Source: a virus
Taxonomy: Duplodnaviria; Caudoviricetes
DNA: 64,000 bases
Virus record (IMG/VR): IMGVR_UViG_3300020181_000012
Coordinates: 2,058-66,057 of that record
Reading direction: 5' to 3' (one strand)
Below are positions 11,974-17,606 of this stretch, one piece after another (the first letter of the stretch is position 1; every line of letters starts with the position of its first letter). Made by a program: the position numbers and the translations under genes. Under the pieces are notes generated by a model, which did not search any database, was not told the origin of the DNA, and saw only the letters and a list, made by a program, of their open reading frames with translations.

Positions 11974-12069
11974 ATGCAATCACAACTCAAACAATCAATC
12001 AGAATAGCTAAACAACGTCAAATCAAACAAGCTATTAACAATATCAAGCAGAATATCTTCATATTCTAA
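11974..12069 (+). CDS. 31-aa basic peptide (paralog of 23887-24015)
   Basis: MQSQLKQSIRIAKQRQIKQAINNIKQNIFIF; shares K..QIK.AI...K...(F/Y)IF with the antisense peptide. Confidence 0.6.
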   Translation: MQSQLKQSIRIAKQRQIKQAINNIKQNIFIF

Positions 12070-12329
12070 CCTTGCCAACAATCAGTCTTAGCAAGCTCTC
12101 TTGATTTAATTGTAATCCAATGTCTCTCATAAGATAATTGCTGCTTAATATATTCAAGATCTTTAAGATAATAATTAACAGCAAGCTTAACATACATCTC
12201 ATAAACATAACCACGATTAAGATTATGTTCTTTCATATTCTTAATCAGAGTGTTAATCAACTTTTTATTATCAGGCATTACCTTAATAGGAACAAATGTG
12301 AGATTGGTGAAGTTTAAATCATGCCACAA
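12066..12329 (-). CDS. Hypothetical protein, isolated antisense gene in the early region
   Basis: No competing plus-strand ORF here; the start may be the internal ATG (MPDNKK...). Confidence 0.5.
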   Translation of the reverse strand: MWHDLNFTNLTFVPIKVMPDNKKLINTLIKNMKEHNLNRGYVYEMYVKLAVNYYLKDLEYIKQQLSYERHWITIKSRELAKTDCWQG

Positions 12330-12465
12330 GTTCGGTTTATTTTATGAGATTATTCGAAGAATCGTACGTAATATTCCAAGAATATTGAGGCATTATACGC
12401 CTAATTTATAACAATTATATATAATATTTATAGTAATATCACAATATAATCAACACATTAATAAA

Positions 12466-12603
12466 ATGAATAAGTATTTAATAGTAAAAGCAAATGGTGA
12501 AATCATAGTATTAAATGCCTATTTTATTCAGGATTTAATTACAACACTAAAGAATGACTATAAATGGCTTGATACTGATATAACACATATAATCAAGCTA
12601 TAA
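12466..12603 (+). CDS. 45-aa hypothetical peptide
   Basis: Hand-found ORF downstream of a TATCACAATAT motif. Confidence 0.5.
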   Translation: MNKYLIVKANGEIIVLNAYFIQDLITTLKNDYKWLDTDITHIIKL

Positions 12604-12652
12604 AATTAATATTAACTTAAAAGCGTAAGACTACGATACAGTCAACAATACA

Positions 12653-12853
12653 ATGAGAATAATACTACAAAGAAGTCCTGACTCAGCTATACTTATAGAT
12701 ATTGGATATAATACTAAATTACATAGTTCTATGTATTGGTTATCTATTGATAGAGCGTATTATGAATATAATGAAAAAGATTATAGCCGAAGGCTAGTAC
12801 ATGCAAATAGTTTATTTACATGTTTTAAGCACTATAAGTATTGGAATAAATAA
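12653..12853 (+). CDS. Hypothetical protein
   Basis: Early-region ORF. Confidence 0.55.
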   Translation: MRIILQRSPDSAILIDIGYNTKLHSSMYWLSIDRAYYEYNEKDYSRRLVHANSLFTCFKHYKYWNK

Positions 12854-12862
12854 GAAATAATT

Positions 12863-13039
12863 ATGAAATACGCAATTATATTAAAGACTAAGAGAAATGT
12901 ATATCTAGTAGGCTTTACTAATGATCCAATAATACGAGATAATAAACATCCAATTGGAGAAAGATATACAATAGAACTAAAGGAGTTTGATAATTTGTTT
13001 ATTCCTTTAGAAGGAGATGCTGCTGTATACTTATCTTAA
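12863..13039 (+). CDS. 58-aa hypothetical protein
   Basis: Hand-found ORF MKYAIILKTKRNVYLVGF... Confidence 0.5.
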   Translation: MKYAIILKTKRNVYLVGFTNDPIIRDNKHPIGERYTIELKEFDNLFIPLEGDAAVYLS

Positions 13040-13047
13040 TAATCTTT

Positions 13048-13087
13048 TAAGTTAGCCCAATATCATTAATATGTGAGGGCTAACTTA
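13048..13087 (+). other. Stem-loop abutting the TATCACAATAT motif
   Basis: TAAGTTAGCCC/GGGCTAACTTA perfect 11-bp stem. Confidence 0.7.
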
Positions 13088-13122
13088 TATCACAATATAA
13101 ACTATAACTAAACTATAACAAC

Positions 13123-13590
13123 ATGGAAGCAATATATAAACTAATAGTAGCAGATACAAGTAAAGATGTAATTTCATTATACCTTAAACGTATAGTTTTA
13201 ACTATAACTGAGTTTGAGAATAATGCATTCAGAAGATTAGATACAATAATATCTTATGAAAGGTTCGGATATAAGTTAGTATATAATAAAGATATTATTG
13301 AATTATATGAGGCAGAATCATATACAGTATCTAAAGAAGAAAGGAAAGAAATATATAAATCGGCTTTACATCTAATTAATACAGGACAAAATAGATTCTG
13401 CTGTGATGCTATTGGAGTAGTAATACAAAAAGAATATCTACCAGTATTTCCGTTTGGAGCTGTAACCAAAGATTTATTTCCTGAGTTACATTCATTTAAA
13501 CCAGCAAATCATGGAATGGTATGGTGGTCAATGGAGGACAAGGATATTAGAATAAGAGTATTAACTAAATGTATAGAAATGTGTGAATGA
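13123..13590 (+). CDS. Hypothetical protein (FPEL..FKP/WW/CxEMC-type C-terminus)
   Basis: C-terminus resembles that of 14149-14403. Confidence 0.7.
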   Translation: MEAIYKLIVADTSKDVISLYLKRIVLTITEFENNAFRRLDTIISYERFGYKLVYNKDIIELYEAESYTVSKEERKEIYKSALHLINTGQNRFCCDAIGVVIQKEYLPVFPFGAVTKDLFPELHSFKPANHGMVWWSMEDKDIRIRVLTKCIEMCE

Positions 13591-13921
13591 TATGAAAAAG
13601 ATAATATTTATATTACTAATACTTACAGGTTGTAAATATAAAGAGCCAGAGACTAAATGGTTTGAATATGAAATAACTAATCTAAGAATAGATGATGATT
13701 CTGAATATCATTTTACATATACAAATCCAAGAACAGGATATGTAGAATCAGAAGATGATGTTTATACTGTAGAGGTATACAGAAATAATATATCTAAACC
13801 TATTTATAGAAAGCTATTACAAGAACTGACTCAATCAGGTAAGAAGTATTGGGTTAATACAGGAACAACACCTCAAATCATATTACCTATAAACTATAAA
13901 ATAGAAACATTTGATGATTAA
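13583..13921 (+). CDS. Putative lipoprotein
   Basis: MKKIIFILLILTG-C lipobox; likely start at the second Met. Confidence 0.7.
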   Translation: MNDMKKIIFILLILTGCKYKEPETKWFEYEITNLRIDDDSEYHFTYTNPRTGYVESEDDVYTVEVYRNNISKPIYRKLLQELTQSGKKYWVNTGTTPQIILPINYKIETFDD

Positions 13922-13924
13922 ACT

Positions 13925-14146
13925 ATGAGATGTAAACTAATATTACCACAAGATAATAGAGATCCTGATTCAATAAACGTATTTGAACAGAGATTTAAGA
14001 ATATAATGGGTAAAGAATTAACTGATTGGATGCTCATGTGTAAAATGCTAGATTTAGATGATTCTATTATATGGACAGATGGAGAATATAGATTAAGTAT
14101 AAGAGCAGATGATCCATTCTATAAGTTATATAAAATAGATAAATAA
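13925..14146 (+). CDS. Hypothetical protein
   Basis: Early-region ORF. Confidence 0.6.
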   Translation: MRCKLILPQDNRDPDSINVFEQRFKNIMGKELTDWMLMCKMLDLDDSIIWTDGEYRLSIRADDPFYKLYKIDK

Positions 14147-14148
14147 TT

Positions 14149-14403
14149 ATGACTAAAAAACAAACTATAAGTAAGTATAGAAAAAGATTTATATACTTAG
14201 TGTGGGCAAATAGGGTGTATAATGGTAGAAAAACATATTTAAGTACAGATACATTATCACAACTTAGTGAAGAGTTAGCACTATTTTGGCCACATAGATA
14301 TGGATCTATGAATGTAGATCTTTATACATCACAAGAACAAGCAGATAAGAATAGAGAAGCTAAAGTATTCTGCTTATTACTATGTGCAGAGATGTGTAAA
14401 TAA
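14149..14403 (+). CDS. Hypothetical protein
   Basis: Ends R...FCLLLCAEMCK, similar to 13123-13590. Confidence 0.6.
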   Translation: MTKKQTISKYRKRFIYLVWANRVYNGRKTYLSTDTLSQLSEELALFWPHRYGSMNVDLYTSQEQADKNREAKVFCLLLCAEMCK

Positions 14404-14432
14404 TTCTCCCCTTTACAAATAATAGTACAACT

Positions 14433-14663
14433 ATGATAACACTTATAAATATAAATGATAGTAGACTAGTAACACCTGGAGTAACTCTAGAATCAGTAGA
14501 GAGATCGGATATAAAATCTACTGATGTTATAGATCAACCTGATATGTTAATAGTATATGATTGTAAAAGCTTTAAGATATTAAAAAATAGGAGAACATAT
14601 CCTCTACCATTTGTAGTATATCCTATACATGTACTTGGTAGTATTGGATCATTAATTTATTAA
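14433..14663 (+). CDS. Hypothetical protein
   Basis: Early-region ORF. Confidence 0.55.
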   Translation: MITLININDSRLVTPGVTLESVERSDIKSTDVIDQPDMLIVYDCKSFKILKNRRTYPLPFVVYPIHVLGSIGSLIY

Positions 14664-14670
14664 CAATCTC

Positions 14671-14781
14671 AAGATCTATTTGGAGATAGATGTTAGGTAG
14701 ACATAAGTATAACATACTTTGAGAAATGTATATTATACGTCGTAATATATCCTAGCTATAACTATCTCCTTATTAGATCTT
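14671..14781 (+). ncRNA. Multibranch structured intergenic element
   Basis: AAGATCTA/TAGATCTT, GGAGATAG/CTATCTCC, TTAGG/CCTAG nested helices with two inner hairpins. Confidence 0.5.
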
Positions 14782-14810
14782 AAACTTATCACAATATAAA
14801 CTACAAATAA

Positions 14811-15095
14811 ATGGATCAACTTCAAAACACAAAGGACGATTTAAGAAATCTTCTATTATATGTTAGAGCTATATACGAAGTATGGAAAAGACCTCATTAT
14901 ATAACATTAGAGGTATTAATACAGAATATAATAGCAAGAATTAAAGAGCCAGATTTAGGAAGAGATGAAATACACAAATGTCTACAGGCTGTAGAAGCAT
15001 GGTATAATTTTAACCCAAAAGACCATGTTGGAGAGACAGTATATAAGGAATTAGATATGATAATTCAGGGTTATTATATGTCAAATAATTTATAA
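14811..15095 (+). CDS. Hypothetical protein
   Basis: Preceded by TATCACAATATAA. Confidence 0.65.
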   Translation: MDQLQNTKDDLRNLLLYVRAIYEVWKRPHYITLEVLIQNIIARIKEPDLGRDEIHKCLQAVEAWYNFNPKDHVGETVYKELDMIIQGYYMSNNL

Positions 15096-15105
15096 ATATC
15101 ACAAC

Positions 15106-15327
15106 ATGAAAATGATTAATAAAGAAATCAATTCTGATGGTACAACTACTATTAGTGTTGCATATGAAAAAACACATTGGCTATTCTTTAAAAAAGTAGT
15201 TGTAAAGAAATATAAAGCTACTAGAAGATTAGTAGCGGAGTATTGGGTTTGGGTAGAACTACCTGACTATACAAGGGTAGGAGATAGATTATCATTCCAA
15301 TTAGATGAATGGAATAGAATGAAGTAA
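15106..15327 (+). CDS. Hypothetical protein
   Basis: Preceded by TATCACAAC-ATG. Confidence 0.65.
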   Translation: MKMINKEINSDGTTTISVAYEKTHWLFFKKVVVKKYKATRRLVAEYWVWVELPDYTRVGDRLSFQLDEWNRMK

Positions 15328-15330
15328 AAT

Positions 15331-15408
15331 ATTAGTCCATATCCAATTAGGCAGGACAGCATGAGTATACTAGTGTTGGTCAAGGGTCTTAACCTTGTAT
15401 GGACTAAT
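15331..15408 (+). ncRNA. tRNA-like cloverleaf (non-canonical)
   Basis: 11-bp acceptor-like helix, D-like arm TCC-AATTAGGCA-GGA, extended middle arm, T-like arm CAAGG-GTCTTAA-CCTTG; no CCA. Confidence 0.5.
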
Positions 15409-15424
15409 TATTAAATATCACAAT

Positions 15425-15613
15425 ATGGAAAACAATAAGAAATATGTAGTATTAGAACATCTAACACTACCAGATAGAGGATTAAGATTCTGGTCCTGCA
15501 CTAATGAGAACATAAATCTAGAATGGTATAAGATTATACTATATACAGATGATGAAGAAGAAGCAATTAAGAATTGCACAGATCACAATTTAACACGGAT
15601 AATAAAAATATAA
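15425..15613 (+). CDS. Hypothetical protein
   Basis: ATG at 15425 embedded in TATCACAAT-ATG; the track start at 15395 lies inside the cloverleaf. Confidence 0.6.
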   Translation: MENNKKYVVLEHLTLPDRGLRFWSCTNENINLEWYKIILYTDDEEEAIKNCTDHNLTRIIKI

Positions 15614-15622
15614 GATAACTAT

Positions 15623-15799
15623 ATGAACTTAATAATCTATATATTTTTGATTTATGTCTTATGTATGCTATTCGTAGCCATTAAAATAAGAAACACGAGT
15701 GAATTGAAAAGATATTTTATTCTAATATTTCTAGCACCATTTACCATAATATTTATTATTTTTAGTAAGGTTATAATAGGTGATTGGTTAGATGAATAA
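15623..15799 (+). CDS. 58-aa two-TM peptide
   Basis: Hand-found ORF MNLIIYIFLIYVLCMLFVAIKIRN...FILIFLAPFTIIFIIF. Confidence 0.55.
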   Translation: MNLIIYIFLIYVLCMLFVAIKIRNTSELKRYFILIFLAPFTIIFIIFSKVIIGDWLDE

Positions 15800-15803
15800 G
15801 ATC

Positions 15804-15998
15804 TTTATCCTGCTTGAAGTCAAACGGTAACAATAGTAGGTGCGAGTCCTACACTTGAAGAAATTCCGCAAGATAAGTTACAGTTATTCCAGTAGCGTTG
15901 TTTGATGTATATAGGTAATAGTCCAAACGGTTAATGGTAAGGTAAGCTCTTACTATCTTAGTAGGTATTACTCCATGCTGGAACATGGACAGGATAAA
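15804..15998 (+). ncRNA. Candidate structured ncRNA with T-loop and pseudoknot
   Basis: TTTATCCTG/CAGGATAAA closing helix; GTAGG-TGCGAGT-CCTAC; TCCATG-CTGGAA-CATGGA loop complementary to TTCCAG at 15887; no ORF. Confidence 0.6.
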
Positions 15999-16009
15999 TT
16001 ATTAAAAAT

Positions 16010-16141
16010 ATACTAATAGTTGATACTATATAAGGAAGAACACTTATATAGTCAGCTCTGGCTTGAAAGACTGCTAGGCAGTAATAACAAGTAAGCTAAT
16101 AACCTGATAGTAGTGGCGTCCTATAAATCAACTATTAGTAT
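16010..16141 (+). ncRNA. Second structured RNA domain
   Basis: Perfect 14-bp ATACTAATAGTTGA/TCAACTATTAGTAT helix enclosing several hairpins; no ORF. Confidence 0.55.
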
Positions 16142-16160
16142 TTTAAATTAAATAAGATAT

Positions 16161-16358
16161 ATGAATATAAAAGAACAAAACTCATCATTATATTACTATC
16201 TATTAGATTGTAAAAATGAAATTATAATGGGACCTAATAATAAATTCGTTGAAGAATTAATATTCAAGAGAATAGAGGAATTAGATAAGGATACCTTACT
16301 AAAAATTATGGAAATAGCTACTGAAATACGTAAAGATCAATTAGCAAATATAGTATAG
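16161..16358 (+). CDS. Hypothetical protein
   Basis: Early-region ORF. Confidence 0.55.
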   Translation: MNIKEQNSSLYYYLLDCKNEIIMGPNNKFVEELIFKRIEELDKDTLLKIMEIATEIRKDQLANIV

Positions 16359-16361
16359 CAT

Positions 16362-16736
16362 ATGAAACCAATATCAGAAGAACTTAGAAATAGACTTAAA
16401 ACAGAAGATCCTAGTCCTGAATTAGTATTAGAACTTCTTAAAGAGACAAGTCCAGATGAGTATTGTACTCGTCATTGGTGTGAAGGAGAATTTGATAATC
16501 CGGATAAATGTTGTATATTAGGTAGAATAGGGTATGAAGTATCTAGAGATCCAGTATATAGTCTCAAGGCAGAACATTATAGATCTATGGCTAGATCGTA
16601 CAAGTGTAGTCTTTCATCTATTAATGATGGAACTTCTCCAAAATATCAACAAGCCACTCCTTATGAAAGAGTTAAAGCTGCAATGGAAGATTTAATTAAA
16701 CTAAAACAAGATGAAAACACTGAGAAAAGTAATTAA
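16362..16736 (+). CDS. Hypothetical phage protein
   Basis: HWCEG...KCCILGRIG...SINDG pattern typical of small phage Cys/His families. Confidence 0.65.
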   Translation: MKPISEELRNRLKTEDPSPELVLELLKETSPDEYCTRHWCEGEFDNPDKCCILGRIGYEVSRDPVYSLKAEHYRSMARSYKCSLSSINDGTSPKYQQATPYERVKAAMEDLIKLKQDENTEKSN

Positions 16737-17025
16737 TTGGATTATAACTCCCCCTTACAAAAGAATGTCCGAGCTTAATAGTAAAATACGTAGTATTATG
16801 TATTTACTTATATCTGAGGATATAACACCAACACATTTAGAAGTAGTAGATATAAGAGTGATTAAAAATACTAATACTAATATGATTATAAGAGTTAGTT
16901 TAGGTAGGCCTGAACTCCTAATAGGAGAAGAAGGTAAGACTATCAATAGACTTGTTAATCAACTAGCTAAGGTATTTAGAAAGAAAGTAGAAATACAGAT
17001 TAAGGAAGTAAATGTATGGCTGTAA
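16711..17025 (+). CDS. Type II KH-domain protein (ribosomal uS3-like)
   Basis: RPELLIGEEGKTINRL...KVEIQIKEV matches the uS3 KH pattern RPG.(L/V)IG..G..I..L. Confidence 0.75.
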   Translation: MKTLRKVINWIITPPYKRMSELNSKIRSIMYLLISEDITPTHLEVVDIRVIKNTNTNMIIRVSLGRPELLIGEEGKTINRLVNQLAKVFRKKVEIQIKEVNVWL

Positions 17026-17294
17026 GAACACCTAAAACTATTAATGGATTAGTAAAAGCTATTGAACAGCATGCTGCTATTAGTGGTGGAGTAATAAGAG
17101 AAATATGGAGATGTAATGCTGGATGGGGAATAATATATTCTCTAACTCCTATAGCTATGCAAAGAGCTAAATATGGAAATATAATAGTATATGGATATTA
17201 TCCTACTCTAGAACAATGTATTAAGGAAGAATATAAAAGAATAGTATTAAGGCAAAAAGTAAAAGGCGGTGAAGCCGAATGGGTAATTAAATAA
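17016..17294 (+). CDS. Hypothetical protein
   Basis: In-operon ORF. Confidence 0.6.
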   Translation: MAVRTPKTINGLVKAIEQHAAISGGVIREIWRCNAGWGIIYSLTPIAMQRAKYGNIIVYGYYPTLEQCIKEEYKRIVLRQKVKGGEAEWVIK

Positions 17295-17317
17295 TTTCAC
17301 AATATAAATATCACAAT

Positions 17318-17596
17318 ATGTCAGCATCAATAAATAGACTATCAAATAGTCTACAATCAGTTCAAGATATAATTATTGGTATATATGTAGATCCAACTAA
17401 AAGGATTGAACTTATAGTATCAAAAGGAGATTATACCTTTAAAACAGTTAGTGTTGGATCTCTATTTGGATTATCTATTAGTAATTATCCCTTAAATAGA
17501 GTCATACATTTATTTCCTGATAACAAAACACTATCGGAAATGATGCAAGATCCTATAGAGTTTGATAAATGGTGTAAAGAGAACATTAACATATAA
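17318..17596 (+). CDS. Hypothetical protein
   Basis: Preceded by a tandem TCACAATAT motif. Confidence 0.65.
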   Translation: MSASINRLSNSLQSVQDIIIGIYVDPTKRIELIVSKGDYTFKTVSVGSLFGLSISNYPLNRVIHLFPDNKTLSEMMQDPIEFDKWCKENINI

Positions 17597-17606
17597 TTAT
17601 CACAAT

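Follow-up and report, generated by a model that had tools for sequence, protein, structure and literature searches.

Comparative evidence for an uncatalogued family of structured phage RNAs with a CUUGAAG core and a kissing loop

The locus described here raises the question whether a gap in an otherwise densely coding part of an uncultured phage genome encodes a structured RNA, to which class such an RNA would belong, and how it might act. The window analysed, a stretch of 64,000 nt, makes up most of the 66-kb IMG/VR virus record IMGVR_UViG_3300020181_000012, which is about 50% complete and has a G+C content of 30%. Genes of the window phage code for terminase, PolA, a Dda-like helicase, ligase, RIIA, and a ClpX-like ATPase, and the best named relatives of this ATPase are found in Chryseobacterium phage MA9V-3, Tenacibaculum phage Gundel_1, and N4-like phages. 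The plus strand carries a tightly packed run of small ORFs, and one of its two largest non-coding gaps (361 nt, positions 15800-16160) harbors the element under study. For this element, the original prediction, made from the letters of the window only, had proposed a novel pseudoknotted, tertiary-folded non-coding RNA of about 195 nt. Our analysis supports this proposal, as the fold, with compensatory changes, is encountered in about 19 phage-derived sequences. Throughout, we use the name CUUGAAG-core RNA for this kissing-loop phage RNA family, of which the window copy occupies positions 15804-15998 of the plus strand.

All helices of the original prediction are present in the window sequence. 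The closing helix of 9 bp (P1) is confirmed and covaries among homologues, as does the pairing of TCAAAC (15820-15825) with GTTTGA (15900-15905), which is part of the longer helix P2; the GGTAATA/TATTACT helix is also found as it had been described. The two strands of the proposed pseudoknot, CTGGAA and TTCCAG, are complementary in the window and correspond to a covarying kissing loop between the hairpins P4 and P6 across members. An extension of this pseudoknot to 8 bp, which had been considered feasible, is not supported, since it would unzip the P6 stem and is without covariation. The CTTG/CAAG hairpin exists in the window, but it is unsupported family-wide and lies within a hypervariable insert (insert 1). 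That the element contains no ORF is true for the coding strand, but the minus strand has an ATG frame of 45 aa, which opposes the strand bias of its ORF block.

The nested structure initially drawn has a folding energy of -45.1 kcal/mol, within 1.5 kcal/mol of the minimum free energy structure (-46.6 kcal/mol). Pairing probabilities amount to 0.76-1.0 for P1, P2, the T-loop hairpin, and the CTTG/CAAG hairpin, with values of 0.4-0.5 for the terminal pairs of P1, and to 0.2-0.4 for P5 and P6. The folding energy of the element is unremarkable (plus strand, z = -1.2, a stability matched by 25 of 200 shuffles; minus strand, z = -2.2), 9-bp inverted repeats are frequent in the AT-rich DNA of the window, and an internal duplication within the element is not significant (p = 0.09). 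By themselves, the window helices are no more than what is expected by chance, and it is because of covariation across about 18 homologues that the window fold is lifted above chance. Two further features of this DNA may be recorded. The motif TAGGT-N5-TCC, chosen post hoc, is present in three copies within 140 nt (15837-15849, 15912-15924, and 15962-15974), two of which make up the P5 stem, and in seven copies in the whole window as compared to 1.65 expected. A sigma-70-like promoter match (10/12) at 15986-16014 reaches from the 3' terminus of the element into a second structured domain; sigma-70-like sites are rarer in this region than in shuffles, and the match may be due to chance.

This second domain (Table 1) consists of an outer helix of 15-18 bp that encloses two hairpins, one of them a perfect hairpin of 10 bp. 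No counterpart of it was found after the element in other members and, because it is absent there, we place it outside the CUUGAAG-core family. It might serve in termination or processing of the transcript, or constitute an RNA of its own.

For all covariance-model searches a single-sequence model (R1) was employed, built from the window sequence alone with the structure of the original prediction, and therefore biased towards window-like members. In a search of 36 whole related phage records, R1 identified a single match (23 bits, E = 4e-5 per genome), with a tmRNA gene on one side and two tRNA genes on the other, in whose alignment the closing helix is fully compensated, the CUUGAAG sequence is identical, and further blocks are conserved. 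A first core pattern, combining two blocks common to the window copy and this match, retrieved nine true and three false loci from IMG/VR and eight true loci from metagenome contigs, while its search of bacterial genomes gave one false match and no true member. A second core pattern, derived from the central block only, re-found every IMG/VR member other than the window copy and added four loci. In the window this central block (P4 3' strand, linker, P2 return strand, and GUAGAGA-type junction) is diverged yet alignable, and it scores with all members in one model. A blastn lead pointed to a further member (L208; 43 bits) in LR756501, a 735-kb uncultured huge phage, and a marine TARA scaffold contributes a longer one of about 310 nt (L161). 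In total, the family comprises about 19 distinct sequences from viral contigs, metagenome contigs, and the huge phage LR756501.

The CUUGAAG-core RNA family is rare. Searches of the INPHARED phages by blastn, with the window region and member L139 as queries, gave nothing, a third query supplied the lead to LR756501, and none of the cultured phages covered in this way was found to carry such an RNA. A pattern that combined the T-loop and the pseudoknot of the original prediction yielded a single chance match in GC-rich coding DNA, and a pattern for window-like members (P1 end plus P3) returned 11 loci without any member among them. When the ClpX-like ATPase was used as a synteny anchor, neither the small ORFs of the window nor similar DNA was found at 65 related loci. 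For the small early ORFs of the window (12000-17600), no homologue occurs within 6 kb of the ATPase gene in these 65 phage loci, and the early region has been wholly replaced between relatives, though their ATPases are 60-82% identical. The 124-aa ORF beside the element has only two distant homologues. In the corresponding early region, the uncultured relatives with ATPases in this range of identity possess tRNA genes along with genes for canonical tmRNAs; tmRNAs that specify unusual tag peptides are located at L060:948-1332, L068:11475-11880, L084:1643-2063, and L143:1045-1480, the last of which scores 80.6 bits with the Rfam model and is missed by ARAGORN. A lesson from these searches is that, with a z-score that is unremarkable and closest relatives that are devoid of the element, only a structure-aware search exposed the family.

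Members of the family are built from the same parts in the same order, namely P1, the CUUGAAG strand, P2, P3 with variable insert 1, P4, the P2 return strand, GUAGAGA, P5 with variable insert 2, and P6, and the positions of these parts in the window are given in Table 1. The variable arm on P3 and the P4 hairpin are carried by a three-way junction, and a linker of 2-4 nt separates P4 from the P2 return strand. P6 varies in length from 3 to 6 bp, and its 3' strand runs directly into P1. An almost invariant core of about 45 nt is thereby accompanied by two hypervariable inserts: insert 1, of 44-74 nt, cannot be aligned between members, and insert 2 measures 30-83 nt in aligned members and more than 150 nt in L161. 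Across the family the length of the RNA ranges from 170 to 310 nt.

Table 1. Positions in the window of the parts of the CUUGAAG-core RNA and of the adjacent structured domain.
Feature	Position	Strand	Remarks
P1, 5' strand (9-bp closing helix)	15804-15812	+	pairs with 15990-15998
J1/2, most of the invariant single strand CUUGAAG	15813-15818	+	identical in every member; final G (15819) opens P2
P2, 5' strand (8 bp, first pair G-U)	15819-15826	+	pairs with 15899-15906; 100% paired in 14 sequences
P3 with variable insert 1	15827-15881	+	P3 is 15827-15831/15877-15881; all 5 pairs covary
T-loop-like hairpin (5 bp, 7-nt loop)	15836-15852	+	inside variable insert 1
CTTG/CAAG hairpin	15854-15872	+	inside variable insert 1
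P4 hairpin	15883-15896	+	4-bp stem 15883-15886/15893-15896; covaries
P4 loop UUCCAG (6 nt), first kissing-loop strand	15887-15892	+	pairs with 15978-15983
P2, 3' strand	15899-15906	+	within the near-invariant central block; this block alone retrieves the family
J2/5 junction strand	15907-15914	+	GUAGAGA in most members, GUAUAUAG in the window; conserved in alignments
P5 with variable insert 2	15915-15971	+	P5 is 15915-15920/15966-15971
P6 hairpin	15972-15989	+	stem 15972-15977/15984-15989; adjoins P1 with zero linker
P6 loop CUGGAA, second kissing-loop strand	15978-15983	+	complementary to the P4 loop
P1, 3' strand	15990-15998	+	pairs with 15804-15812
Second structured domain	16007-16144	+	z = -4.4; 0/200 shuffles

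Support for this fold comes from covariation. In a 14-sequence alignment, fitted to the window structure so that agreement is somewhat inflated, standard pairs occupy 94.1% of the cells, as compared to 37-45% when partners are slid by one to three columns. Both sides have changed in 25 of the 44 pairs, and values as high as those observed are reached by none of 500 shuffles. P1 is fully paired in all 15 aligned members, where it comes in four sequence types plus a fifth in L161, with seven of its nine pairs doubly changed; 11 of the 15 aligned sequences have the same P1 sequence, and independent events are fewer than cells. All six pairs of P5 have changed on both sides and 95% of their cells pair, the P4 stem covaries (for example from G-C to A-U in the window, L151, and L208), and P6 keeps four conserved inner pairs (87-100% per pair; 85% over all six pairs). 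RNAalifold predicts all six helices, P1-P6, independently in its consensus. Despite the overcounting of events, the slid controls and the independent RNAalifold consensus leave little doubt about the P1-P6 fold.

Members of the family also agree on the strand that folds. The G-U pair at the base of P2 is found in all members and G-U pairs occur in P1 and P4 as well; because these would be A-C on the opposite strand, the plus strand is the one that is folded, and the RNA is consequently read in the same direction as the neighboring genes. As to the kissing loop, its central pair is C-G in eight members, U-A in six, and a mismatch in one, 14 of 15 members are able to form the four inner pairs (27 of 20,000 shuffles), and a second position has changed on both sides in L161. 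The P4-P6 kissing loop thus covaries at two positions.

To which class does this RNA belong? No family of Rfam 15 matches the element in the whole window, neither at the gathering threshold nor in two E-value scans, nor does any match it in ten member loci at the gathering threshold or the LR756501 copy in E-value mode. The original prediction had set the element apart from tmRNA, RNase P, and group I introns, and this view is upheld, as the window has no Rfam 15 match to them at E<=10. For tmRNA (RF00023 and permuted forms), the same tools that give no match in the window find tmRNAs in relatives, which serves as positive control, and for group I introns and RNase P RNA this role falls to an intron beside the LR756501 member, which is detected by the search. 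ARAGORN calls neither tRNA nor tmRNA in the window, and tRNA (RF00005) was discarded with no Rfam match at E<=10 either, the resemblance being limited to a T-arm 17-mer. There is no gathering-level Rfam match to phi29 pRNA (RF00044), ROOL, or GOLLD in the window or in ten member loci, and none to YrlA or other bacterial Y RNAs, for which it also matters that the T-loop is not conserved among CUUGAAG-core RNAs. A permuted tmRNA, a tRNA half, attP, a MITE, and a split-gene intron were dropped as candidates in the absence of any supporting feature. Judged by sequence comparison, the CUUGAAG-core RNA is a real and uncatalogued family of structured phage RNAs that is absent from Rfam 15.

The original prediction had taken the T-loop as a mark of a tertiary-folded RNA. 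Such a fold is supported and the hairpin is indeed present in the window, but it is no feature of the family: it sits in a hypervariable insert, and in insert 1 it is kept only in the window and in L208 (LR756501), where it has a UGCRA-type loop and a compensated stem. Its 17 nt recur without a mismatch in the T-arms of more than 50 phage tRNA genes, chiefly those for tRNA-Tyr, and an exact scan with this 17-mer gave 57 loci, almost all of which are tRNA T-arms and none of which is a homologue of the element. Member L223 (793-993, reverse strand) has a canonical T-arm-like hairpin in insert 2 with a 5-bp stem and a UUCAACU loop. Hairpins of this kind are not enriched in the family (4 versus 2.0 expected; 72 of 500 shuffles have as many). 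As far as the members can be compared, the T-loop hairpin is a clade-specific peripheral element and no family hallmark. Perhaps it acts as a tertiary brace in the window clade, and T-arm modules may have been swapped into the variable arms, that is into insert 1 in the window and LR756501 and into insert 2 in L223.

Beyond this identity of a hairpin in the window insert with phage tRNA T-arms, the CUUGAAG-core RNA resembles tRNA in its four-way junction, whose first and last branches touch through their loops and whose last branch is stacked on the closing helix. In contrast to tRNA, it has no anticodon arm and no CCA end, and its loop-loop contact consists of six Watson-Crick pairs instead of a D-loop/T-loop interaction. 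By context, the nearest analogues are T4 rnaC and rnaD, the species 1 and 2 RNAs (NC_000866 70908-71171), which are small structured RNAs beside phage tRNA genes as well and are presumably released by the tRNA-processing machinery. However, rnaC has a canonical T-arm stacked on the closing helix at its end, whereas the CUUGAAG-core RNA ends in a kissing hairpin, and rnaC and rnaD lie within tRNA clusters, whereas most CUUGAAG-core members lie outside of them. At the T4 locus, R1 matches only tRNA T-arms and noise, with nothing at rnaC or rnaD.

The carriers are phages of about 90 kb to 735 kb. Each of eight carrier records compared contains one copy per genome; no protein family common to all eight was found, six of them have some genes in common, and two have almost nothing in common with the rest. 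A search of eight other carrier records did not reveal the ClpX-like ATPase of the window phage group. ORFs flanking the members are unrelated orphans with no Pfam match. Among the about 19 members, six directly adjoin tRNA or tmRNA genes, and the window copy is not one of them. One of the six has a tmRNA 7 nt upstream and a tRNA-Leu gene 41 nt downstream, another is located inside an array of 24 tRNAs, a third 5 nt after tRNA-Val, and a fourth 35 nt before a tRNA; the member in LR756501 follows at a distance of about 7 nt a tRNA-Leu interrupted by a group I intron, and the last has as its upstream neighbor, at about 22 nt, a tRNA-like 3' end that was read by eye and is not called by ARAGORN. 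Most members, the window copy included, start 4-10 nt past the stop codon of an ORF and not beside a tRNA, a U-rich tract often occurs 3' of P1, and in several members an ORF begins close downstream, often after 11-45 nt. The complete carrier genome G042 contains no tRNA gene.

The split tRNA-Leu of LR756501.1 is encoded at about 190243-190532 on the minus strand (L208:2115-2404); its group I intron (RF00028, 56.6 bits) covers L208:2138-2328, and the split tRNA is missed by ARAGORN and by the Rfam tRNA model. In L167, L151, L140, L135, and L222 the RNA is bordered by short conserved flanks, a GATTTA-like sequence upstream of P1 and TATTAA downstream, and the same flanks are present in weaker form at 15797-15803 and 15999-16005 of the window. 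These conserved flanks suggest that the RNA gene is mobile as a short cassette whose ends are defined.

As to the mode of action, we favor, with moderate confidence, the reading that the CUUGAAG-core RNA is a stable trans-acting RNA that would be released by tRNA nucleases where it adjoins tRNA or tmRNA genes, whose P4 and P6 loops would pair within the molecule, and whose junction would provide a functional surface. The RNA would be transcribed together with its neighboring genes and, beside tRNA or tmRNA genes, would be excised by RNase Z or RNase P. Release as a discrete species is a prediction from gene arrangement, and most members follow an ORF stop and not a tRNA. Formed within one molecule, the kissing loop would create a continuous P1-P6-kiss-P4 stack beside a P2-P3 stack; such continuity is to be expected from the zero linker between P6 and P1 and from a 6-nt P4 loop that would be fully paired. 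The junction strand leading from P4 to P2 is longer than that from P3 to P4, as if P4 were folded back along P2, and the invariant junction strands of 6-7 nt would have the reach required for ring closure, bridging both stacks. Lining a pocket between the parallel stacks, these strands would constitute the functional surface, and in the window clade the T-loop hairpin might contribute an extra peripheral brace. Possible targets would be a conserved host component, such as the translation, tRNA, or RNA-processing machinery, or a small ligand. Because the carriers have no protein in common and the core of about 45 nt is near-invariant in unrelated phages, we infer that a conserved host component or a small ligand is most likely the target, rather than a partner encoded by the phage.

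A bolder possibility, which we regard as tentative, is that the family represents a compact, horizontally mobile RNA-only machine, either a loop-assembled unit similar to pRNA or ROOL or a new catalytic or ligand-binding core. If this were true, its 45-nt pocket would act on a universal host target, which would explain how the RNA functions in unrelated phages without a protein partner.

Rather unlikely, in our opinion, is that self-assembly is the purpose of the kissing loop, with P4 and P6 loops pairing 'hand in hand' between molecules to form dimers or closed rings, as in pRNA and in the nanocages of ROOL and GOLLD. The pRNA of phi29 is a phage RNA of similar size with a junction core and two complementary, covarying hairpin loops, through which pRNA molecules pair with one another at the portal of small protein-primed phages. 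The CUUGAAG-core RNA differs in residing in carriers of 90-735 kb, and here covariation cannot separate intramolecular from intermolecular pairing of the P4 and P6 loops. Two perfectly complementary hairpin loops that covary, and carriers among which no protein partner was found, are what self-assembly would lead one to expect. ROOL and GOLLD are RNAs of phages and prophages, often near tRNA islands, that have no protein partner and whose covarying 'tertiary' kissing loops turned out to bridge separate chains, providing a precedent for intermolecular covarying loops in phage RNAs (PMC12286853). However, they are 3-5 times larger than the CUUGAAG-core RNA and unrelated to it in sequence and secondary structure. 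Moreover, by helix arithmetic the P4 and P6 loops could meet within one molecule, and the long invariant junction strands would be best explained by ring closure in a monomer; on this geometry, pairing of the two loops would most likely be intramolecular.

It seems improbable that the element is a new catalytic RNA, self-cleaving or of another kind, that assists in the maturation of adjacent tRNA or tmRNA transcripts. The model for such a role would be the HDV-like theta ribozymes of gut phages, which lie directly downstream of phage tRNA genes (PMC10879173), and five CUUGAAG-core members similarly begin about 5-25 nt past a tRNA or tmRNA 3' end; in addition, a near-invariant junction of about 45 nt held by a pseudoknot is typical of ribozyme cores. 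Most members are not adjacent to tRNAs, though, and the lack of tRNA genes in G042 speaks against this role as well. In contrast to the nested double pseudoknot of theta ribozymes, the CUUGAAG-core RNA combines a four-way and a three-way junction with a kissing loop, and at 170-310 nt it is much larger than theta ribozymes and large for a self-cleaver. Homology to theta ribozymes was dismissed, given this different order of helices and no match to any Rfam ribozyme family.

Still more doubtful is that the element acts in cis on a flanking mRNA, be it as a 3' stabilizer or terminator for the upstream ORF or as a riboswitch-like leader for the downstream ORF. The start of several members only 4-10 nt past an ORF stop, the U-rich tract after P1 in many of them, and the ORF that is closely downstream in several would suit such an element. 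Yet the upstream and downstream ORFs are mutually unrelated and without known domains, in several members the neighbors are tRNAs or tmRNA, and a stabilizer or terminator needs neither an invariant junction core nor a kissing loop. A conserved class of downstream genes, as is typical for riboswitches, was not found, the downstream ORFs being unrelated, without Pfam match, or replaced by tRNAs. We argue against cis-regulation, as the flanking ORFs show neither relatedness nor any match in Pfam. That the element is a decayed tRNA or tmRNA remnant, or a set of chance hairpins in an intergenic spacer, is hardly credible: the 17-nt hairpin that many phage tRNA-Tyr genes have as their T-arm, the tRNA and tmRNA genes of relatives in this early region, and the unremarkable thermodynamic z-score would fit, but it is contradicted by the homologues in unrelated phages, in which the core is conserved and compensatory changes occur, and likeness to tRNA or tmRNA ends with the T-arm.

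Phages harbor a growing set of structured RNAs beside tRNA genes, such as T4 rnaC and rnaD, ROOL, and GOLLD, to which the CUUGAAG-core RNA adds a small family with a clear consensus, strong covariation, a kissing loop backed by covariation, and an unusually invariant junction core. One of its carriers, LR756501 with 735 kb, is what we take to be the largest phage genome on record. At 170-310 nt, the RNA is of a size tractable for chemical probing, crystallography or cryo-EM, and pull-downs, and it could be a convenient way into the role of tRNA-adjacent phage RNAs.
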